From Candidatus Zixiibacteriota bacterium (GTDB taxonomy: Bacteria > Zixibacteria > MSB-5A5 > UBA10806 > 4484-95): 64,000 bases of DNA. The notes beneath the pieces are model-generated. The model had not been told where the DNA came from. It did not search any database and saw only the letters and a list, made by a program, of their open reading frames with translations. Below, one piece after another: positions 10,356 through 46,690 of the stretch; positions within the stretch are counted from its first letter, which is position 1; each line of letters starts with the position of its first letter. The stretch is from assembly GCA_021159005.1 (NCBI GenBank), contig JAGGSN010000187.1:6972-70971 (forward strand), given 5' to 3'. The translations under genes were made by a program, and so were the position numbers.

Positions 10356-11672
10356 ATGTTTGAACAGTTGACTGAAAGACTTGAATCGGTATTCAAAAAG
10401 ATTACCGGACGCGGCATCCTTAACGAAAAGGATGTCAAGGAAGCAATGCGGGAAATCCGCATGGCTCTTCTTGAGGCTGATGTCAATTACAAGGTCGCCA
10501 AAAAGCTAATTGTCAACATACAGGAACGCGCGGTCGGGCAAGAGGTTGCCAAATCGATAAAACCCGGTCAGCAGGTTGTAAAAATTGTCAGCGATGAGCT
10601 AACCAAGCTTCTCGGCGAACAAAATGCTCCTCTGAATACAGCTTCCCAGCCGCCGACAATCATCATGATAATAGGCCTTCATGGCGGCGGTAAAACAACG
10701 CTCGCCGGAAAGCTTGCCAAACTGCTTGGCTCGCGCGGCAAACATCCGCTTTTAGTGGCCGCTGATATTCATCGACCGGCAGCCAAAAAACAACTTGAGG
10801 TGCTGGCCAAATCAATTAATATGCCGTACTACACAAGCGATTCCAATGCTCCCGGAATATGCCTTGAGGCTGTAAATCACGCGAAGGAAAAGTTGTACGA
10901 TACTGTTATTCTTGATACCGCCGGACGTTTGCAAATCGATGATGATTTAATGGCTGAGCTTGCAGATATAAAAACTAAGGTGAATCCCGCAGAGGTGTTG
11001 TTTGTGGCGGATGCAATGACCGGTCAGGAAGCGGTAAATGTCGCTTCCTCGTTCAACGAGAAAATCGGCATTACCGGTGTTGCCCTAACCAAACTGGATG
11101 GCGATGCCCGCGGCGGCGCGGCATTATCTATTAAATCGGTTCTGGATGTGCCGATTAAATTCGTCGGTATTGGTGAGAAACTTGATGCAATTGAGGAATT
11201 TCACCCCGAACGAATGGCCTCCCGGATTCTGGGTATGGGCGATATTATAACCTTAGTTGAAAAAGCCCAGCAGAACGTAGATATCGAAAAAGCTAAAAAA
11301 CTCGAACAAAAGCTTCGCAAACAGGAATTTACTTTCGAGGATTTCCTTGACCAGTTAAAGCAGGTCAAGAAAATGGGACCGCTGGAGTCGCTTCTGGAAA
11401 TGGTTCCGGGCATGGGCGGAAAGCTGAAAGGGCTTTCCATTGATGATAAGGCATTGCCCCGAATCGAGGCGATTATTTGTTCGATGACTGTTCAGGAACG
11501 CCGTAATCCGTCAATAATTAACGGCTCAAGAAGAAAAAGAATTGCGCGCGGCAGCGGAACATCTGTACATGATATTAATGTTCTATTAAAGCAATTTACG
11601 CAGATGCGGAAAATGATGAAGAATTTTTCAAAGTTTAATTTCAAAGGTTTTCCGAAAGGGTTTCCGATATAA
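10356..11672 (+). CDS. ffh: signal recognition particle protein Ffh
   Basis: GLHGGGKTT, DTAGR, TKLDGDARGG, Met-rich M domain. Confidence 0.9.
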   Translation: MFEQLTERLESVFKKITGRGILNEKDVKEAMREIRMALLEADVNYKVAKKLIVNIQERAVGQEVAKSIKPGQQVVKIVSDELTKLLGEQNAPLNTASQPPTIIMIIGLHGGGKTTLAGKLAKLLGSRGKHPLLVAADIHRPAAKKQLEVLAKSINMPYYTSDSNAPGICLEAVNHAKEKLYDTVILDTAGRLQIDDDLMAELADIKTKVNPAEVLFVADAMTGQEAVNVASSFNEKIGITGVALTKLDGDARGGAALSIKSVLDVPIKFVGIGEKLDAIEEFHPERMASRILGMGDIITLVEKAQQNVDIEKAKKLEQKLRKQEFTFEDFLDQLKQVKKMGPLESLLEMVPGMGGKLKGLSIDDKALPRIEAIICSMTVQERRNPSIINGSRRKRIARGSGTSVHDINVLLKQFTQMRKMMKNFSKFNFKGFPKGFPI

Positions 11673-13915: not shown

Positions 13916-13984
13916 CGCCCGATGGAATAGCAGGTAAGCCGATTCATCTCGCTTAGTTGCGAACGAACGCAACATTAAAACGTA

Positions 13985-14017
13985 GGGGCGTCCACCTCAG
14001 GAGGATGCCCTCTTTTT
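13985..14017 (+). terminator. intrinsic terminator after rplS
   Basis: GGGGCGTCCacctcaggaGGATGCCC stem followed by CTCTTTTT. Confidence 0.6.
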
Positions 14018-14633: not shown

Positions 14634-14682
14634 TATTTATCGGATGCTGAGGCTTTGCCGCGTGATAGATAATTTCAGGCAG

Positions 14683-14721
14683 TGTTAGTTCATAGTCCGC
14701 CTAAGGCGGATGAACTGACAC
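14683..14721. repeat. family-C long hairpin repeat (…TCAGTTCATAGTCCGCCTAAGGCGGATGAACTGACAC), copy 1, plus partner motif ACCTGCCTGAACAGTTAAATG at 14748-14780
   Basis: inverted repeat around a CCGCCtaaGGCGG core; near-identical copies at 17922 and 29265. Confidence 0.7.
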
Positions 14722-14865
14722 GTTTTACTACACAAAATCGGCAGGTTACGTTTCACTACGACCTGCCTGAACAGTTAAATGAGGGGCAGACGGGGACGTC
14801 TGCCGCCCACGCGAATCCTTGTCCACCATAGGCGGACTTAGGTTGTTGAAAAAGCAGCAACACCT

Positions 14866-16404: not shown

Positions 16405-16413
16405 AAATTTTAA

Positions 16414-16440
16414 TGGTTGGCGTACGTCCTCGTCTGCCAA
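16414..16440. repeat. family-A hairpin repeat (consensus GGCTGGTGTACGTCCTCGTGCACCAGC), diverged copy
   Basis: ggttggcgtacgtcctcgtctgccaac. Confidence 0.6.
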
Positions 16441-16555
16441 CTTAAGAAATAAAGAATAGCCAAGACCACAAGTCCGCCTCAGTCGGATTGACCTACAAAA
16501 TACTAAACGTTCCCCTTTTATTGAATATATCGATATAATCATTTGTTAACAGTCT

Positions 16556-16600
16556 GAGGGCGTATGCAATACGAGGGCGTATGCAATACGCCCCTACGCG
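16556..16600. repeat. family-B hairpin repeat (GAGGGCGTATGCAATACGCCCCTACGCG), 1.5 tandem copies
   Basis: GGGCGTAT-gca-ATACGCCC perfect 8-bp stem. Confidence 0.75.
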
Positions 16601-16612
16601 AACGGTGTTTCA

Positions 16613-16667
16613 GTGGCTGGTGTACGTCCTCCTTTATAGTGGCTGGTGTACGTCCTCGTGCACCAAC
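16613..16667. repeat. family-A repeats: truncated copy then full copy
   Basis: ggctggtgtacgtcctcc…ggctggtgtacgtcctcgtgcaccaac followed by caataagtt as at 28039. Confidence 0.75.
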
Positions 16668-16676
16668 AATAAGTTC

Positions 16677-16746
16677 AGGGCGTATGCAATACGCCTCTAC
16701 GCGCAACGGCATTTCAGTGGTTGGTGTATGTTCTTGTGCACCAACT
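16677..16746. repeat. composite B + A unit (B 16677-16704, A-variant 16718-16746)
   Basis: same B-spacer-cagtgg-A arrangement as 16574-16667 and 27970-28038. Confidence 0.7.
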
Positions 16747-16830
16747 TCAGTGGTTCATGTGGATGGCATCCGCCATAGGCGGGCTCGTCTGCCAACAACG
16801 ACCCTTGACTGGGCTTATCCGCCTTACCGG

Positions 16831-16866
16831 GCAAACAAAAAGGCAGGTCTCGGAAAGACCTGCCCT
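16831..16866 (-). terminator. intrinsic terminator for the - strand gene 16895-17260
   Basis: revcomp GGGCAGGTCTttccgAGACCTGCC followed by TTTTTGTTT. Confidence 0.6.
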
Positions 16867-16894
16867 ACATAGTTTCCATCCTAATACCTGAAAA

Positions 16895-17370: not shown

Positions 17371-17832
17371 ATGGTAATGTCGGATTTTGATAGAAATATT
17401 GCCTTGGCTAAGTTCAAATCTTTTCTGGCGGAAAAAGGGTTGAAACTTACCGCTGAAAGGCTAATCATATTAGAGGAATCATTAGCCACCGAGGGGCATT
17501 TCGAGGCGGATGACCTTTTGATGATATTAAAAAATAAAGGCCGCAAAACATCGCGGGCGACTGTCTATCGGACTCTGGATATTATCGCTTTAGCTGGAAT
17601 TCTCCGCAAGGTTTATCTTGGCGATGCGCCGGTGCAGTTCGAGAAAATTACCGATGAGCCCCAGCATGACCACATGATTTGCCAGAAATGCGGCGCCAAA
17701 ATCGAATTTCATCTGCCCGAACTAAGCGAACTTCAAGAACAGCTCTGCGATGAACATGATTTTACCATGAAAGCCTATAGTCTGCAAATTTACGGTATAT
17801 GTTCTAATTGTTCGGAAAATAAGAGCGTTTAG
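17371..17832 (+). CDS. fur: Fur family transcriptional regulator
   Basis: winged-helix N-terminus, HDHMICQKCG, CSNC metal-binding motifs. Confidence 0.8.
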   Translation: MVMSDFDRNIALAKFKSFLAEKGLKLTAERLIILEESLATEGHFEADDLLMILKNKGRKTSRATVYRTLDIIALAGILRKVYLGDAPVQFEKITDEPQHDHMICQKCGAKIEFHLPELSELQEQLCDEHDFTMKAYSLQIYGICSNCSENKSV

Positions 17833-17866
17833 GGGTGTCCGCCTGAGGAGGACGCCCTCTTTTTTA
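17832..17866 (+). terminator. intrinsic terminator after fur, covarying homolog of the rplS terminator
   Basis: GGGGTGTCCgcctgaggaGGACGCCC then CTCTTTTTT. Confidence 0.6.
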
Positions 17867-17921
17867 TTATTCCCCTCTTGAGGGAGGTTAGGGGTATGTT
17901 ATTAACGCAAAATTTTATGTT

Positions 17922-17962
17922 GTGTCAGTTCGTAGTCCGCCTAAGGCGGATGAACCGGCACT
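17922..17962. repeat. family-C long hairpin repeat copy 2, plus partner motif at 17988-18021
   Basis: tgtcagttcgtagtccgcctaaggcggatgaaccggcac … cgtttcgctacgcatgcctaaacagttaaatg. Confidence 0.7.
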
Positions 17963-18099
17963 TTTTGCTTGATAAGAATATCGCCAGGTCACGTTTCGCT
18001 ACGCATGCCTAAACAGTTAAATGTTCTGAAAATAAAATGGGGAAGCTCCTATTTTACTAAAAGATTGACCGTTAATACAGTTATCTATATATTAAATAC

Positions 18100-24949: not shown

Positions 24950-25238
24950 TGATATGCTGTCAGGTGCGGGGACATGACAGCGCTTGAAAATCATTTAAAG
25001 CTATTAATTAATATCACTGAATAGTCAGGAGTCGGAGACTCCTGACCTACTTCCTAAATATATAGTGAGTGCAAGGTAATTTTAAATATCAAATCTCACT
25101 CAGTTATCGCAGGTTGGGTTCTCCACCCCAGGCGGATGAGTGGAGCGAACGAGCGGACGAAGTCCTTTATTCAACCCGACACCTCTCACAACAATATAAT
25201 ATTTTTTCCTTTAGTAAAATCCCTATCATAATCGAAAT

Positions 25239-25269
25239 GTCGGGTTTCTCCCGTTGGTCGGAACCCGAC
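25239..25269. repeat. family-D hairpin repeat (GTCGGGTT…AACCCGAC)
   Basis: gtcgggtttctcccgttggtcggaacccgac; related copies 27812-27857 and 28054-28091; half-sites at 78-90 and 1630-1645. Confidence 0.6.
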
Positions 25270-25299
25270 CTGCTCTACTATAACAGATTGTGTGATAAC

Positions 25300-25413
25300 G
25301 GAAAACAAAAGAAACTCGCACTGACAGCATGTATGAAAAAACTCCTCTTGATAATACGGAGCATGCTAATTAACAAAACAACCTTTAATCCTGAAATAAA
25401 TAGCTTGACTTGA
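25300..25413 (+). pseudogene. IS110-family transposase C-terminal remnant
   Basis: NGKQKKLALTACMKKLLLIIRSMLINKTTFNPEI resembles the conserved C-terminus of IS110/IS1111 transposases; no N-terminal DEDD domain present upstream. Confidence 0.4.
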
Positions 25414-25428
25414 AAGACGGTATCTACA

Positions 25429-25455
25429 AAGCTGGTGTACGTCCTCGTGTAGCTT
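25429..25455. repeat. family-A hairpin repeat, diverged copy, immediately 3' of the IS110 remnant and flanking the GIY-YIG gene
   Basis: aagctggtgtacgtcctcgtgtagctt. Confidence 0.6.
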
Positions 25456-25458
25456 ATG

Positions 25459-25863
25459 CTATTTATGAATATTCCATGATTTCTGAGGCAACGTTGCTAT
25501 TATTGCATTTTCGAGTCCGTTGATCATATCGATTTCCAAACCGCTACTATACTGCCTATTTTCGGATGGTTTCCATGCCAGAATCTTTACCTTTTTATTC
25601 TCTCTAAGAGCTTGTTTAATCAATTCCGCAATCCGTTCATTAGTCCCAGCGCCTATCATTCCTTGGTATCGTCCCATGCGGTCCTTCAAAGTAGTTGTTG
25701 AACTTTGACACGCACCGACATACATGACTTCATCATTAACCAAAAAAGCATAAATAACTCTATCATCTTTGCTTTTATTTAGACTAAAACGTACGCCACT
25801 GCTCAAGTTTTCATCTAATAAACATTCACCAACTTCATTAAATTCAAGTCCTGATATTTCCAT
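25459..25863 (-). CDS. small GIY-YIG-like nuclease family protein
   Basis: RVIYAFLVNDEVMYVGACQSS…R…NERIAE fits GIY-(10)-YVG…R…E pattern; 134 aa. Confidence 0.5.
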   Translation of the reverse strand: MEISGLEFNEVGECLLDENLSSGVRFSLNKSKDDRVIYAFLVNDEVMYVGACQSSTTTLKDRMGRYQGMIGAGTNERIAELIKQALRENKKVKILAWKPSENRQYSSGLEIDMINGLENAIIATLPQKSWNIHK

Positions 25864-25893
25864 AAAACCTCCTGAAAATGGTAGTTATTTTGT

Positions 25894-25920
25894 GGCTGGT
25901 GTACGTCCCCGTGCACCAGC
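25894..25920. repeat. family-A hairpin repeat
   Basis: ggctggtgtacgtccccgtgcaccagc. Confidence 0.75.
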
Positions 25921-26052: not shown

Positions 26053-26421
26053 CTACCGTTTCGATTTCTTACTCGATGTGTCCTTCTCGCTGTTTTTCTT
26101 TTCGATTTTTTTAACCTTCACCGGCATTTTCTGCTCAATTTTTGGTTTGGGCTTGGGTGGCGCAACCTTCTTGACAGCCGGCGCTTTGCGTTTCTGATAA
26201 TCATCGTTAATTCCATCGCCGTCTTTGTCGATAAACTTATCTTTCACAGGTAAGGCTGCAGCTTTCGATTTCAGTTTTACAGCCGGCGTTTTCTTATCAA
26301 TCTTCTTTTCGATTTTGGTCGAATCTTTTTTGCTTTTCTTAGACACTTTCTGAATAGCAAAAGCCTCCGCACCGCTCATAGCTATGAACAGCGCCAACGT
26401 CAATATAATTACTTTTTTCAT
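26053..26421 (-). CDS. secreted Lys-rich protein with thrombospondin-type-3-like Ca-binding motif
   Basis: signal peptide MKKVIILTLALFIAMSGAEA; DKDGDGINDD; KKSKK low-complexity; start ATG overlaps upstream gene stop (ATGA). Confidence 0.55.
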   Translation of the reverse strand: MKKVIILTLALFIAMSGAEAFAIQKVSKKSKKDSTKIEKKIDKKTPAVKLKSKAAALPVKDKFIDKDGDGINDDYQKRKAPAVKKVAPPKPKPKIEQKMPVKVKKIEKKNSEKDTSSKKSKR

Positions 26422-27782
26422 TTCCTGCCTCTTTCCTTAGAATATTTCGACCCGGATTTGGAGCTTCCGCTTTTTAATTTGTCGCTGGTTTTAGAACGTA
26501 CAGGTTCGGCTTTTTTAGACTCGTTTTTCTTGATATTGTCTGACTTTTTATTATCTGTTTTTTTTACTGAAGTTTGTCCCGAATTCGGTTTTTTCTGCTT
26601 CTGCTTTTTATTTATAATAATATCTTTATCGTCAGAATTCAAGGATTTACTGCTTTTTTCCCGTTTAATCTGATATTCTCTATCTTTTTGGGGATAATTG
26701 TGAATATTATCCTTTTTGTTTTTTTCTTTAAATATTAATCCGCTATTTTGCTTATTAATCTTTTCCGTGTAGGTTCCATCATTAAAAATCCTATCCGAAT
26801 ACTTTTTCTGCACTCTTGATGGCGGAGTATGAAGCGGCCTGGTATGTTTAACTCGATATTTTTCCGCTTCCCTGACAAAACCGGGATCGTTGCGGTGCTT
26901 CTCCTGTTTAAATCTCCAATTTTTCATATTCGAGCGGCCATAATCGAAATCCCGGAATTTTCGTTTAATCTTGGCATCGACATAATATCGCTGACCTCTT
27001 GTTACATAAACATAATCCTGCCAGCAGGGATAGCCATGATAATAAATCCATACCCAGTGACGGCCAATATATATTTCCGGTATAAGAATTGGCGCGATGC
27101 CGAAATAACAGCCGTCAATCCAGATCTCGGCGCCCGGGTAATCACAGCCAATCCAGATACTGCCAATATAATACGGGTCATAACGCCAGTAGCGGTACCA
27201 ACTGTGATGCCGGTAGCGGTTATCGATAAAAAACATCGTCGAGGCGGAAATATAAGACCCATTCCTAACAATTCTATTATTTAGGTCGTTTACGAAAACC
27301 GCCATCTCGCCGCGCATCGTATGAACGAAATCATCATAGTAGCTGTCCCAGTTGCCATACTCAAAATATTCATAACGCATGAATTCGGGAGGGTCAATCC
27401 GGTAGGGGCTGGCAACGGCGTAAATATATTCCTTGCCCTTAGGTCCGGTTACCTCAAGCCGGTAATCATCATAAGCATCGGGGATACGGTAAACCTCTTC
27501 GCCGCGAATAAAACAATCGCTGTTGTAATCGGATGGGAAAAGAAGGCTGACATTGCCGGCTGGATCGATATCATAAATCACCGCATAGCAATCCTCCGAA
27601 GCGCGAAAATAAACAGCCACATCTTCGCCGAAATAATATGTCGCTCCATCGCTTTTATTAACCCAGACATCAATCTCAAGGTTGTCAACCCTGCTGATGC
27701 CGTGTTTCTGGTCGGCGGAGGCGGCAACTGTCATAATTGCGGCCAGCGCTATTACCATTAAATTTCTCAAATGCTTTTTCAT
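26418..27782 (-). CDS. secreted DUF4384/PEGA domain protein with Trp/Tyr-rich region and Lys-rich C-terminal tail
   Basis: signal peptide MKKHLRNLMVIALAAIMTVAASA; PGAEIWIDGCYFGIAP PEGA-like motif; true start at 27782 (the track ORF extends upstream only by reading through repeats). Confidence 0.6.
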   Translation of the reverse strand: MKKHLRNLMVIALAAIMTVAASADQKHGISRVDNLEIDVWVNKSDGATYYFGEDVAVYFRASEDCYAVIYDIDPAGNVSLLFPSDYNSDCFIRGEEVYRIPDAYDDYRLEVTGPKGKEYIYAVASPYRIDPPEFMRYEYFEYGNWDSYYDDFVHTMRGEMAVFVNDLNNRIVRNGSYISASTMFFIDNRYRHHSWYRYWRYDPYYIGSIWIGCDYPGAEIWIDGCYFGIAPILIPEIYIGRHWVWIYYHGYPCWQDYVYVTRGQRYYVDAKIKRKFRDFDYGRSNMKNWRFKQEKHRNDPGFVREAEKYRVKHTRPLHTPPSRVQKKYSDRIFNDGTYTEKINKQNSGLIFKEKNKKDNIHNYPQKDREYQIKREKSSKSLNSDDKDIIINKKQKQKKPNSGQTSVKKTDNKKSDNIKKNESKKAEPVRSKTSDKLKSGSSKSGSKYSKERGRK

Positions 27783-27811
27783 ATCAACCACCTTGTTTAA
27801 TATTATTGTAG

Positions 27812-27857
27812 GTCGGGTTCTCCGCCTAAGGCGGACCGTAGCGGGGAGAAACCCGAC
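27812..27857. repeat. family-D hairpin repeat containing CCGCCTAAGGCGG core
   Basis: ggtcgggttctccgcctaaggcggaccgtagcggggagaaacccgac. Confidence 0.6.
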
Positions 27858-27888
27858 GCCGTTTGCTTTATTATGGTTTGAGGCATGC

Positions 27889-27999
27889 GAGGGCGTATGC
27901 AATACGCCCCTACGCGGAATAGCATGCGAGGGCGTATGCAATACGCCCCTACGCGGAATAATAGCATGCGAGGGCGTATGCAATACGGCCCCTACGCGG
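27889..27999. repeat. three tandem family-B repeats (39-42 bp period), no unique spacers
   Basis: gcatgcgagggcgtatgcaatacgcccctacgcggaata x3. Confidence 0.8.
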
Positions 28000-28011
28000 A
28001 ACAGTAATTGT

Positions 28012-28038
28012 GGCTGGTGTACGTCCTCGTGCACCAGC
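28012..28038. repeat. family-A hairpin repeat
   Basis: ggctggtgtacgtcctcgtgcaccagc then caataagtt. Confidence 0.8.
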
Positions 28039-28053
28039 AATAAGTTATTGTAA

Positions 28054-28091
28054 GTCGGGTTCCGACCCAACGCAGTAGGGGAGAAACCCGA
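28054..28091. repeat. family-D hairpin repeat
   Basis: gtcgggttccgacccaacgcagtaggggagaaacccgat. Confidence 0.55.
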
Positions 28092-28219
28092 TACAACCAC
28101 TTCATTTAACCCGATGCCGCTTGATTTGTTTTCATCTTTCATCATCGCTGCCTTTTTCTACAGCTGGTATCCGCCATTGACGGACACCAACCATATTACC
28201 CTATAAGAAATTATGCCCC

Positions 28220-29047
28220 TTAATTTACATCCAAGTCATTGCCGGCATGTTTCTGCATATCCGGCCTGATTTTCAATTCTCTATTGTCTTCATCAATTTG
28301 ATAAGCCCAGTAAAACTCCATCGCGTCAGGATTATTATCAAAATCGGTTATCCATATTCGGGCGTAATGCCACTCATCGAAATGCCATAGCTTCAGCATG
28401 TACATATGCCCATCAATAGCCTCGACACTGTTAAAATCCGACCAGCCATCATCGGGAGCATAGCTTACATCATCGAAACCATCGGCATAGCCGAAATCCT
28501 GGATGTAATAATCATCATGACGGACATATATATAGAACGAGTTGTTATAATAGCTAAGGTAAATATCGCAATTGGTATAATCATCATACGGAACTCTTTC
28601 GCCCGCATAAAGATCGAAACCGGTATAATCGTAATAACTGTTTTCGTCATAAGCGTATATAACAGCATTAGCCCCTTCCGGGCGAGGTGTATCATAGGTA
28701 TAATCAGACAACTCTGATTCCTGGCCATCCTCGTCAATAGCGGTTACCGCATAGTAATATGTTTCACCATTATCAACAGCGTTATCAATCCAACTGGTAT
28801 AGTTTGATGATACCTCATTCTGAAAATAAAAGGTATTGTCCGGGCCGTTTGTATTGCGGTAAATAGCATATGTTTTGATATCCAGTTCGCCAACCGCATA
28901 CCAGGCAAGATAAATCGCCTCATCGGCGGTAATTGATGTTAAACCTGTCGGCGCGGCGGGTACGGGATCGACATAAGAAGTGTTTTCCTCACAGCCAACT
29001 ATAATCATGGCTACTAATACTATCATAATGCCCATAAGCTTTTTCAC
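28220..29047 (-). CDS. lipoprotein with fibronectin type III-like domain and Asp/Tyr-rich C-terminal region
   Basis: MKKLMGIMIVLVAMIIVGC lipobox; FN3-like PAAPTGL…YYYAVTAID; DY-rich tail. Confidence 0.55.
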   Translation of the reverse strand: MKKLMGIMIVLVAMIIVGCEENTSYVDPVPAAPTGLTSITADEAIYLAWYAVGELDIKTYAIYRNTNGPDNTFYFQNEVSSNYTSWIDNAVDNGETYYYAVTAIDEDGQESELSDYTYDTPRPEGANAVIYAYDENSYYDYTGFDLYAGERVPYDDYTNCDIYLSYYNNSFYIYVRHDDYYIQDFGYADGFDDVSYAPDDGWSDFNSVEAIDGHMYMLKLWHFDEWHYARIWITDFDNNPDAMEFYWAYQIDEDNRELKIRPDMQKHAGNDLDVN

Positions 29048-29264
29048 TGAAACCTCCTGTTGTTATCGTCTGATAATTAATTAATCAATAATCATGCCAA
29101 AATCGCTAATTCTGTAACATGCAGTCTTTCAGGGAGATATGGTTTTACGTAAAAATGTCGGTTGCTGTTATGCACAATATTTGTTCGTTTGGCAACTATA
29201 GTTGTGCATGGCTATTATTCACATTGCAGGGAAATCCGAGCCGCCTAAACATTTGATTCGGGGT

Positions 29265-29304
29265 TGTGTCAGTTTGCAGTCCGCCTAAGGCGGATGAACT
29301 GACA
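29265..29304. repeat. family-C long hairpin repeat copy 3
   Basis: tgtgtcagtttgcagtccgcctaaggcggatgaactgacaca. Confidence 0.7.
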
Positions 29305-29566
29305 CATATAGCGAAGACAGGAACCACTGCCTGATTCCGGTAATATAAAAGTATCAATGTTGATAGGGAAATATTCCTGACAACGCTTGAATTAATCACT
29401 CCCTGATAATTTTTTAAATTTTGTAAAAACAAAATAATATCAACTTTGTTAATTGTGGTTAGGTTATTCTATATAATTGTGATTCATAGTCTTAAATGGA
29501 ATTATTAATGTTAAGCAATTGGCTTGCCAAACCGATAAAATATTTTAAATGTTTTAAAAAAAGTTC

Positions 29567-29716: not shown

Positions 29717-29807
29717 ATTAAACAGAATATGGTTTGCCGAGTGTAGAAATTATTATTGCAGTTCGGTGATTAAATAATGAATTTATGTGGCAGGAGAAGG
29801 ATGACTG

Positions 29808-31016
29808 ATGGCCAAGGAGAAATTTGAGCGAACGAAACCGCATGTGAATGTAGGTACGATAGGTCATGTTGATCATGGCAAGACTACATTAACGGCGGCG
29901 ATGACGATGATATTGGGTCGCAAGGGTCAGGCGGCGGTTCGCGATTTTGATTCGATTGACAATGCTCCGGAGGAGCGTGAGCGCGGCATAACGATAGCGA
30001 CGGCGCATGTTGAGTATGAGACCGATAGGCGTCATTATGCTCATGTTGATTGTCCTGGTCACGCCGATTATGTTAAGAACATGATAACGGGTGCGGCCCA
30101 GATGGATGGCGCGATATTGGTAGTTAGCGCGGCGGATGGTCCGATGCCTCAGACGCGCGAGCATATATTATTGGCACGTCAGGTAGGAGTTCCTTACATA
30201 GTTGTATTCATGAACAAGATAGACCAGGTAGATGATCCTGAGTTATTAGACTTGGTGGAGCTTGAGGTACGGGATTTATTGAGTCAGTATCAATTTCCGG
30301 GTGATGACATTCCGATAATTCGTGGTTCGGCATTAGAGGCTATGAATCGCGGCGCTGATGAGAGCGTACCTTATGATGATCCTGCTTTTAAGTGTGTGCA
30401 TGAGTTGATGGATGCGGTAGACAGCTATATACCGGAGCCGAAGCGTGATATTGACAAGCCGTTTTTATTGCCGATAGAGGATGTATTTTCGATAACGGGT
30501 CGAGGTACGGTAGGAACGGGTCGAGTTGAGCGCGGCAAGATAAAGACCGGTGATCCTGTTGAGCGTGTTGGTGTTAGGGAGACTCGCAAGACGGTAGTAA
30601 CGGGTGTTGAGATGTTTCGGAAGATATTGGATTATGCTCAGGCGGGCGATAATGTAGGTTTGTTATTGCGCGGAGTAGATAAGAATGATCTTGAGCGCGG
30701 CATGGTTTTGGCGGCGCCTGGCAGTATTAAGCCGCACAAGAAGTTTAAGGGAGAGGTATACATTTTGACGAAGGAAGAGGGTGGTCGTCACACGCCGTTT
30801 TTCAATGGTTATCGTCCGCAGTTTTATTTTCGGACGACGGATGTAACAGGTACGGTGAAGCTTCCGGAAGGTGTTGAGATGGTAATGCCTGGTGATAATG
30901 TAACAGTAGAAGGCGAGTTAATAACGCCGATAGCGATGGAGAAAGAGCTTCGTTTTGCTATCCGTGAAGGCGGCCGCACCGTAGGCGCCGGCGTTATTAG
31001 CGAAATAATAGAGTAA
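29808..31016 (+). CDS. tuf: elongation factor Tu (copy 1, tufB-type position)
   Basis: [25 protein letters not shown]; 402 aa; identical to the copy at 45482. Confidence 0.95.
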
Positions 31017-45417: not shown

Positions 45418-45481
45418 ATAGGGACGTTATTTTTATTTTTTAGTGATTTGATAATGGAAAATAAAGTTAAGGAGATGACTG

Positions 45482-46690
45482 ATGGCCAAGGAGAAATTTG
45501 AGCGAACGAAACCGCATGTGAATGTAGGTACGATAGGTCATGTTGATCATGGCAAGACTACATTAACGGCGGCGATGACGATGATATTGGGTCGCAAGGG
45601 TCAGGCGGCGGTTCGCGATTTTGATTCGATTGACAATGCTCCGGAGGAGCGTGAGCGCGGCATAACGATAGCGACGGCGCATGTTGAGTATGAGACCGAT
45701 AGGCGTCATTATGCTCATGTTGATTGTCCTGGTCACGCCGATTATGTTAAGAACATGATAACGGGTGCGGCCCAGATGGATGGCGCGATATTGGTAGTTA
45801 GCGCGGCGGATGGTCCGATGCCTCAGACGCGCGAGCATATATTATTGGCACGTCAGGTAGGAGTTCCTTACATAGTTGTATTCATGAACAAGATAGACCA
45901 GGTAGATGATCCTGAGTTATTAGACTTGGTGGAGCTTGAGGTACGGGATTTATTGAGTCAGTATCAATTTCCGGGTGATGACATTCCGATAATTCGTGGT
46001 TCGGCATTAGAGGCTATGAATCGCGGCGCTGATGAGAGCGTACCTTATGATGATCCTGCTTTTAAGTGTGTGCATGAGTTGATGGATGCGGTAGACAGCT
46101 ATATACCGGAGCCGAAGCGTGATATTGACAAGCCGTTTTTATTGCCGATAGAGGATGTATTTTCGATAACGGGTCGAGGTACGGTAGGAACGGGTCGAGT
46201 TGAGCGCGGCAAGATAAAGACCGGTGATCCTGTTGAGCGTGTTGGTGTTAGGGAGACTCGCAAGACGGTAGTAACGGGTGTTGAGATGTTTCGGAAGATA
46301 TTGGATTATGCTCAGGCGGGCGATAATGTAGGTTTGTTATTGCGCGGAGTAGATAAGAATGATCTTGAGCGCGGCATGGTTTTGGCGGCGCCTGGCAGTA
46401 TTAAGCCGCACAAGAAGTTTAAGGGAGAGGTATACATTTTGACGAAGGAAGAGGGTGGTCGTCACACGCCGTTTTTCAATGGTTATCGTCCGCAGTTTTA
46501 TTTTCGGACGACGGATGTAACAGGTACGGTGAAGCTTCCGGAAGGTGTTGAGATGGTAATGCCTGGTGATAATGTAACAGTAGAAGGCGAGTTAATAACG
46601 CCGATAGCGATGGAGAAAGAGCTTCGTTTTGCTATCCGTGAAGGCGGCCGCACCGTAGGCGCCGGCGTTATTAGCGAAATAATAGAGTAA
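45482..46690 (+). CDS. tuf: elongation factor Tu (copy 2, tufA-type position)
   Basis: protein identical to copy 1; nucleotide identity extends from ~10 nt upstream of ATG to the stop. Confidence 0.95.

Follow-up and report, generated by a model that had tools for sequence, protein, structure and literature searches.

Our results indicate that the repeats clustered near 28.0 kb of the DNA analyzed here, a 64,000-nucleotide stretch of a Zixibacteria genome that we call the window, very probably constitute a REP cluster, and that the hairpin repeated head to tail within it, B, is a GTAG-tagged REP of the TnpAREP subclass 2.4/RAYT Group 4 type. If so, Zixibacteria, a candidate phylum represented mainly by MAGs, would be among the hosts of REP/RAYT-type systems. 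This genome may have a subclass 2.4 RAYT, or may have had one formerly. Two further features of the locus are mildly surprising, namely, the letter-for-letter identity of B across about 15 phyla and its fusion with a second hairpin family, A. The name of the enzyme class refers to two classifications of the same group, as TnpAREP subclass 2.4 is given as the equivalent of Bertels' RAYT Group 4 in PMC6006769 and PMC5581495.

The cluster lies in the intergenic region at 27783-28219 (minus strand), between the stop of a 275-aa gene (28220-29047, minus strand) and the start of a DUF4384/PEGA gene, also on the minus strand, whose true ATG is at 27782. On the minus strand, B reads GTAG followed by GGGCGTAT-TGC-ATACGCCC, a perfect 8-bp stem closed by a 3-nt loop. 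The foot of the hairpin is GGG...CCC, with three consecutive G-C pairs, and corresponds to the subclass 2.4 GTAGGGGCG... type. The unpaired GTAG at the foot is described in PMC3733652 and in PMC6006769 as the defining mark of the GTAG REP superfamily. As expected for a palindrome of this superfamily, the 8-bp perfect stem-loop is repeated well above chance: the core GGGCGTATNNNATACGCCC, searched with up to two mismatches, has five matches in the 64-kb window (16575, 16678, 27891, 27930, and 27972), and the number expected from 100 dinucleotide-preserving shuffles of the window is 0. Within the window, B is present as five full copies plus a half copy, divided between two loci that are both intergenic, and all of the copies read GTAG on the minus strand. 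In 74 kb of this genome, we count six B copies at three loci, one of them in L125.

At the 28.0-kb locus, B unit 1 (27891-27913, minus strand; GTAG tag at 27913-27910) and B unit 2 (27930-27952, minus strand), which starts 39 nt from unit 1, are perfect copies. B unit 3 (27972-27995, minus strand) starts 42 nt from unit 2 and carries a 1-nt insertion in its stem (ATACGGCCC), an insertion that is not present in the ENA scaffold or in Logan SRR14000037. The three units form a head-to-tail array at 27883-28001 with a 39/42-nt unit, GCATGCGAGGGCGTATGCAATACGCCCCTACGCGGAATA, that comprises the REP and its own flanks, and Tandem Repeats Finder reports this interval with a period of 39, 2.9 copies, 95% matches, and a score of 206. 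The first-pass annotation, made from the letters alone, had described three head-to-tail copies of a perfect 8-bp stem with a GCA loop and a 39- to 42-bp period, and both the core matches and the tandem repeat search bear this out, the one exception being unit 3, whose insertion breaks the perfect stem. The second locus lies in the intergenic region at 16405-16894, between convergent genes. Here a half B of 17 nt (16556-16572) is followed by a full B (core, 16575-16593; CTAC, 16594-16597), together spanning 16556-16597 on the minus strand, and a further B with one mismatch (ATACGCCT) and a CTAC tag occupies 16678-16700, again on the minus strand.

B is not confined to this genome. A scan of 596 Gb, with one genome per species, found the exact 19-mer in about 15 phyla, at no fewer than 120 genome loci, and only about 4 matches are expected by chance (2 x 596e9/4^19). 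The phyla include Atribacterota, Chloroflexota, Cyanobacteriota, Bacteroidota (including Ignavibacteria), Gamma- and Alphaproteobacteria, Desulfobacterota, Bacillota, Zixibacteria, Omnitrophota, Latescibacterota, Fibrobacterota, Spirochaetota, Cloacimonadota, and Patescibacteria, and B is also found on twenty-eight IMG/VR viral contigs. Among the matches listed, 158 exact copies have full flanks, and in their alignment the hairpin is preceded on its 5' side by G, T, A, and G at frequencies of.92,.90,.92, and.89, respectively. No further flanking position is conserved in this alignment, and GTAG was absent from the search pattern. The copies avoid genes: 20 of 171 (12%) lie deep in long ORFs, compared with 74% of random positions. 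Among the matches listed, 55 copies lie between tandem genes, 18 between convergent genes, and 8 between divergent genes.

Several genomes carry B many times, with eleven loci in a Chloroheliaceae MAG, six in an Oscillospiraceae genome, and five in a cyanobacterial MAG among the matches listed, and B is clearly the master sequence in several unrelated genomes. The arrangements of B in other genomes, again among the matches listed, include 21 inverted dimers with the tags outside, 6 with the tags inside, and 14 head-to-tail arrays. Two long arrays are larger versions of the tandem amplification in the window. In an Ignavibacteriaceae genome (L028, 3805-4615), B recurs head to tail every 127 to 265 nt, mostly about 264 nt, with conserved flanks, and in an Oscillospiraceae genome (L113, 5387-6425), the spacing is mostly 83 to 213 nt, with both orientations represented and the flanks again conserved. 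The guide itself can vary. In Desulfobacteraceae S08.Bin136, GCAG replaces GTAG in L012 and L025, which is a lineage-specific change of the guide tetranucleotide, and the sole copy in L003 has CTGA. The proteins that recur beside B, surveyed at 120 loci among the matches listed, belong to generic families only.

The link between B and a RAYT comes from other genomes. In a Moraxella sp. (L010), an ORF of 170 to 176 aa lies between two exact, inverted B copies with their tags outward (117-140 and 693-715), and this arrangement is a textbook REPtron. It came to light in a phmmer search whose queries were RAYT-like ORFs from the vicinity of A copies. The ORF scores 24.3 bits against Pfam Y1_Tnp (cutoff, 23) and 78.7 bits (E = 4e-22) against the NCBIfam model for the REP-associated tyrosine transposase, 1.3 bits under the cutoff of 80. 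At E <= 1e-10, relatives of the ORF number about 8000, and these belong to Moraxella, Pasteurellaceae, many Bacteroidota, Chlorobium, and metagenomes; IMG labels several of them RayT. We inspected six homologs with 41 to 59% identity, from Pasteurellaceae, Rufibacter, Chitinophagales, and three metagenomes. B-type hairpins are inserted in-frame in all six and are found beside the gene in four. The hairpins beside these four genes are B or compensatory variants of it, with the stems GGGCGTAT, GGGCGAAT, and GGGCGTTT and the loops TGC, GCC, GGC, and CGC. Counting the Moraxella locus, B-type hairpins that flank such a gene or lie within it were found in other genomes at L010, L276, L277, L278, L280, L282, and L284.

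The motifs of the homologs are MPNH[MIL]H, WQR, and YIxNNP. According to PMC6006769, subclass 2.4 is marked by NH[IFV]H, WQ, and YIxNNP, by a foot of three G-C pairs, by "double-foot" forms, and by REP insertions within the gene, and it is distributed among "Cyanobacteria, Bacteroidetes and various phyla." The histidine motif of the Moraxella ORF, NHMH, departs from NH[IFV]H. The exact 23-mer GTAGGGGCGTATTGCATACGCCC, tag included, is listed in supplement file 2 of the same source as a REP of Bibersteinia trehalosi AGH38469.1, a subclass 2.4 tnpAREP. B is therefore, on the evidence of that supplement, a known REP type in a new host. The first-pass annotation had called its sequence unrelated to that of the E. 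coli elements, a statement that needs amending with regard to known REPs, since B carries the canonical 5' GTAG guide on the minus strand and is identical to the catalogued Bibersteinia trehalosi REP. In the main texts searched, neither the B sequence nor the REP-encoded peptides gave a match, and B matched only in the PMC6006769 supplement.

In the window and 10 kb more of this genome (L124 to L127; together 74 kb of an 86-kb scaffold), a motif scan and phmmer found no RAYT gene. Two side observations concern the coding sequences around such repeats. The call of the DUF4384/PEGA gene is over-extended through the REPs, both in the window (26418-28145, minus strand, 575 aa) and in L281 (3906-5630, 574 aa), and the peptides that the REPs encode in the spurious ORFs of the window (GVLHTPSHA, VGAYCIRP, and GVCNTPL) are also found as insertions in subclass 2.4 RAYT proteins. 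In two genomes, one of them a Chitinophagales MAG, the subclass 2.4 RAYT gene lies between hsdS and hsdR (L280, 796-4693; L282, 308-3810), a pair that belongs to a type I restriction-modification system.

The second component of the cluster, A, is a hairpin family unrelated to B, characterized by its GTG(G/C) tag, its 10-bp stem, and its GTCCYC loop. At 28010-28038 (plus strand) it reads GTGGCTGGTGTACGTCCTCGTGCACCAGC, or GTGG-CTGGTGTAC-GTCCTC-GTGCACCAG-C when divided into its parts, and its 10-bp stem contains a conserved T.G mismatch. It is followed by the tail CAATAAGTT (28038-28046, plus strand), which is shared with the end of a module at 16667-16675. The 16.6-kb locus holds a truncated A (16613-16631) and a full A (16639-16667), which together (16613-16667, plus strand) represent an internal 26-nt duplication, and a diverged A, GTGGTTGGTGTATGTTCTTGTGCACCAAC, at 16717-16745 (plus strand). 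Altogether, the window contains about eleven A-like copies at seven independent loci (113, 16413-16745, 24916, 25431, 25892, 28010, 62326, and 62358). All are on the plus strand, whatever the direction of the genes, including between minus-strand genes. As the G-rich strand and the one that bears most of the genes, the plus strand is probably the leading strand. The strand uniformity of A may fit a mechanism linked to the replication strand, on what is a small sample.

The A core, GGTGTACGTCCYCGYGCAC, is abundant in metagenomes from diverse samples and was recovered from at least 120 metagenome contigs, about ten of which are chance matches in high-GC genes. On its 5' side, A is flanked by a T-rich stretch and then GTG. 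The search pattern did not constrain the three outer pairs of the stem; in 114 distinct copies, these pairs are Watson-Crick in 80 to 83%, compared with 34 to 58% in shuffles, and they covary among several pair types. A is under hairpin constraint. The constancy of its T.G mismatch and its GTCCYC loop is uninformative in this respect because both lie inside the search pattern. No match to the A sequence was found in the literature searched by sequence or in the text and supplements of PMC3733652.

It is possible that the hairpins are mainly RNA elements, in the 3' untranslated region of the 275-aa gene or the 5' untranslated region of the DUF4384/PEGA gene, and that their repetition is a by-product. 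We regard this as unlikely, and such a role could coexist with an origin as REPs. The roles proposed for RNA elements of this kind are exonuclease blocks, processing sites, and attenuators, as well as protection of mRNA 3' ends, and stabilization of mRNA by REPs is reported in PMC6006769. The cluster is probably transcribed, because it lies between two codirectional minus-strand genes. On the minus strand, a G.U pair is possible between the final G of the tag and the base that follows the stem, and a 301-nt region folds far better than shuffles do on both strands (z = -5.0 and -8.4). However, a scan for promoters and terminators found 0 terminator-like sites at 27600-28400, and no T run follows B across phyla. 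No Rfam family matched the hairpins as an RNA element; a scan of the whole window returned two tRNAs only. Moreover, the strand of GTAG shows no real bias relative to the flanking genes across genomes (same in 32 cases, opposed in 23), and A, being on the plus strand throughout, is antisense where it lies between minus-strand genes. Recognition at the DNA level is favored by the unpaired GTAG, which is conserved, and by the association with a Y1 transposase.

As an alternative at the DNA level, B and A could be the ends or target sites of a transposon other than a RAYT, such as a MITE or a hairpin-targeting element of the IS110 family. A remnant of an IS110-family transposase in the window (25069-25413), a C-terminal fragment with a weak NCBIfam match, ends exactly at a truncated A (25431-25451), and no RAYT flanked by A was found. 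The three Y1 genes that we checked near A copies (L162, L239, and L190) are flanked directly by other hairpins (GTAGGTCAG..., GTAGGTCGGGAGC..., and CCCACAGC...GCTGTGGG). We nevertheless consider a non-RAYT transposon very unlikely. Both B and A are single hairpins that lack terminal inverted repeats and target-site duplications, B brackets Y1 transposase genes and is inserted within them in several phyla, and the IS110 junction is probably better read as an insertion into a preexisting A copy. Some IS110-family elements insert into REPs, and a study of ISPpu9 reportedly describes such a case. The 24-nt end sequence of the remnant, CTTGACTTGAAAGACGGTATCTA, is found again at 340-363 of the window, and the junction suggests that A hairpins serve as insertion sites for an IS110-type element. 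Between the truncated A and a second A in the same orientation (25892-25920) lies a 134-aa ORF (25459-25863, minus strand) that is conserved in the JGI assembly. We considered this ORF as the enzyme of A and rejected it, as it has no Pfam match and one insignificant NCBIfam match far below the cutoff. At 120 metagenome loci, the only proteins that recur beside A are secreted proteins with dockerin, T9SS, or IPTL-CTERM tails.

Further hairpin families surround the REP cluster. Two C elements, of the form GTAG/GTAA-GTCGGGTT...GGAGAAACCCGAC, flank the B-A cluster. The first, GTAG-GTCGGGTTCTCC...GGAGAAACCCGAC with a nested CCGCCTAAGGCGG hairpin, lies at 27808-27857 (plus strand), and the second, GTAAGTCGGGTT...GGAGAAACCCGAT, at 28050-28092 (plus strand). 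The orthologous locus (L158, 915-1155) comes from a related genome, 82 to 90% identical, and is without both C elements; A is retained there, and the B array consists of two divergent units whose loops contain CCGCCTGAGG inserts. The absence of C from this locus indicates that the C elements are recent insertions or have undergone deletion. Hairpins that share the head of C (GTAGGTCGGG/GTAGGTCAG) lie immediately beside subclass 2.2-like RAYT genes, one in L239 and one in L162. These subclass 2.2-like genes account for two of the three Y1 genes near A, have the motifs DHLH and YIHYNP, and are flanked by the GTAGGTCAG... and GTAGGTCGGGAGC... hairpins.

Elsewhere in the window, E hairpins, GTAGGGGCGTCC-ACCTCAGGA-GGATGCCC followed by TCTTTTT, lie just 3' of plus-strand genes (13982-14017 and 17830-17864). 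They share the GTAGGGGCGT foot with B and differ in the T run at the end, and they look like REP-derived terminators. Family D is a 59-nt repeat (14671-14729, 17911-17969, and 29255-29313) in which a long hairpin, GTCAGTTCAT...ATGAACTGAC, encloses TAGTCCGCCTAAGGCGGA. A small CCGCCTNAGGCGG hairpin is nested in several families of the window and in the B units of the related genome. The window also contains two tuf (EF-Tu) genes that share 300 nt at 100% identity (29800-30099 and 45474-45773), a duplicated gene that has apparently undergone gene conversion. When the B-bearing genomes of other phyla were searched for families A, C, D, and E, the sole match, with one mismatch, was to the 13-nt fragment of C, so that only B is common across phyla.

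B-A modules are found at the 28.0-kb locus and at 16573-16745. Adjoining B and A copies are inverted relative to each other, tag toward tag, and the gap between the 28-nt B repeat of the first-pass annotation and the GTGG tag of A is semiconserved, at 11 to 13 nt. That annotation had placed A 12 nt after the last B of the array; A does follow, at a distance of 14 nt from the CTAC tag, or 11 nt from the 28-mer. The order at 16556-16745 is half B, full B, truncated A, full A ending in CAATAAGTT, one-mismatch B, and diverged A. The recurrence claimed for the order B-A-CAATAAGTT thus holds at 16573-16675 and fails at 16676-16745, which does not end in CAATAAGTT. A 77-nt module, B-spacer-A-AATAAGTT, can be compared between loci. 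The copy at 16.6 kb is 90% identical to that at 28.0 kb, spacer and tail included, and the copy at 28.0 kb is only 70% identical to the orthologous module of the related genome. This difference implies that the composite has been copied or converted between loci, and the proposal that the modules duplicate as composites is upheld by it.

In the triplet B-B-B, each repetition takes in the REP and 16 to 19 nt of flank, which suggests tandem duplication in place rather than three independent insertions. An array of this kind could in principle be an assembly artefact, a repeat that was misjoined or wrongly expanded. The ENA scaffold of the same population (L121, scaffold_53, about 10823-11345) has a 100-N gap inside the array, two of the Logan contigs (set L122, L123, and L286) stop inside it, the assemblies disagree by 1 nt on the B unit nearest A, and a 1.1-kb Logan contig with a neighboring gene ends beside the 16.6-kb cluster. 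Against this, the window and the independent JGI contig Ga0186713_136564 are gap-free, base-for-base identical, and have three units, the related genome has a two-unit array in the same place, and the array, at 119 nt, is under the typical length of a short read. In every assembly, unique flanks anchor both of the outer B units, so that at least two units are secured, and the count of three rests on the two gap-free assemblies. An artefact, against which the first-pass annotation had advised a check, is therefore extremely improbable. The regular spacing of a 28-nt palindromic repeat every 39 to 42 nt might also recall a small CRISPR-like array, a reading with practically nothing in its favor otherwise, since the "spacers" are 11 to 14 nt long and identical to each other where unique ones would be expected, no cas genes are nearby, and the repeat is dispersed singly, with its GTAG tag, in many phyla.

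For the REP cluster, we propose a mechanism modeled on E. coli TnpAREP and the IS200/IS605 family, in which, according to PMC6006769, a hairpin with its GTAG guide is recognized on single-stranded DNA and cleaved by an HUH-Y1 enzyme. In single-stranded DNA, the 8-bp GC-footed hairpin of B would extrude with its 5' GTAG guide, and the cognate RAYT (HUH-Y1) would bind and cleave it, so that the element is copied to new extragenic sites. Arrays would then grow by tandem duplication of the REP and its flanks, giving the 39/42-nt B-B-B. In this lineage, B and A would have been joined tag to tag as the 77-nt B-spacer-A-AATAAGTT and subsequently copied between loci, presumably by the same enzyme that moves B. 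REP activity may be current in this genome, and the cluster may affect the mRNAs of the flanking genes. A REP cluster at this position would also explain assembly breaks and spurious ORFs in Zixibacteria, such as the 575-aa call and peptides like GVCNTPL.

The presence of an exact 23-nt REP as master copy in about 15 phyla, beside RAYTs that are only 41 to 63% identical to each other, raises the tentative possibility that the pair either has been frozen by an unusually strict recognition code or has been transferred repeatedly between phyla. The B-A fusion, in turn, could be a chimera in which one family hitchhikes on the enzyme of the other. We favor this combined view only weakly. In the literature, we found no explicit account of a frozen or transferred 23-nt REP or of an A-B chimera. 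REPIN-RAYT systems of Groups 2 and 3 are lineage specific and vertically inherited, and the subclass 2.4 pair would contrast with them if this view is true. The identical 23-mer provides a test case for whether REP-RAYT pairs always inherit vertically and, more practically, a simple marker for subclass 2.4 REP-RAYT systems in about 15 phyla.

Among known systems, B is most directly comparable to the REPs of subclass 2.4/RAYT Group 4 (Quentin et al. 2018, PMC6006769; Bertels et al. 2017, PMC5581495), which have the same 5' GTAG, 8-bp stem, foot of three G-C pairs, and 3-nt loop, as well as the same patchy spread over many phyla. The B type of hairpin both flanks subclass 2.4-type genes and sits inside them. 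B differs from these REPs in its host, a Zixibacteria MAG from a phylum not named in the available parts of either survey, in being without its cognate gene in 74 kb of scaffold, and in its occurrence as a head-to-tail triplet fused to a hairpin of another family. For the GTAG superfamily as a whole, Di Nocera et al. (2013; PMC3733652) described GTAG-tagged hairpins, variants with a GTGG tag, hybrid dimers that combine families, and clusters in which units are repeated in tandem along with DNA from their flanks. Head-to-tail dimers are reported there as rare, whereas B-B-B is head to tail, and the A family, with its T.G mismatch and GTCCYC loop, does not appear in the text or supplements.

The first-pass annotation had compared the modules to E. 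coli BIMEs, and this comparison is right in kind. Like BIMEs, which are built of REP Y and Z, the B-A composite is an extragenic cluster of two inverted hairpin types with semiconserved spacing that is copied as a unit, and here it is clustered with more REP-like families. Its inverted arrangement, with the tags facing each other, is "TT" in the nomenclature of PMC3733652. In contrast to BIMEs, B and A have no sequence similarity to the E. coli elements beyond the GTAG tag, and the partners come from different families, B with GTAG and A with GTG, whereas BIME partners are Y and Z variants of one family. The likeness does not extend to B-B-B either, which is head to tail and lacks the alternating orientation that defines E. 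coli BIMEs; the B-A pairs, for their part, are inverted and have similar spacers of 11 to 13 nt. The composite also resembles REPINs (Bertels and Rainey 2011; PMC3116915) in consisting of two inverted hairpins in about 80 nt that are copied as a unit. In a REPIN, however, the same REP is present twice and pairs into one long hairpin, whereas B and A differ in sequence, are not complementary, and are predicted to fold as separate hairpins. The B-A composite shows that fusion and joint copying are possible for hairpins that belong to different families.
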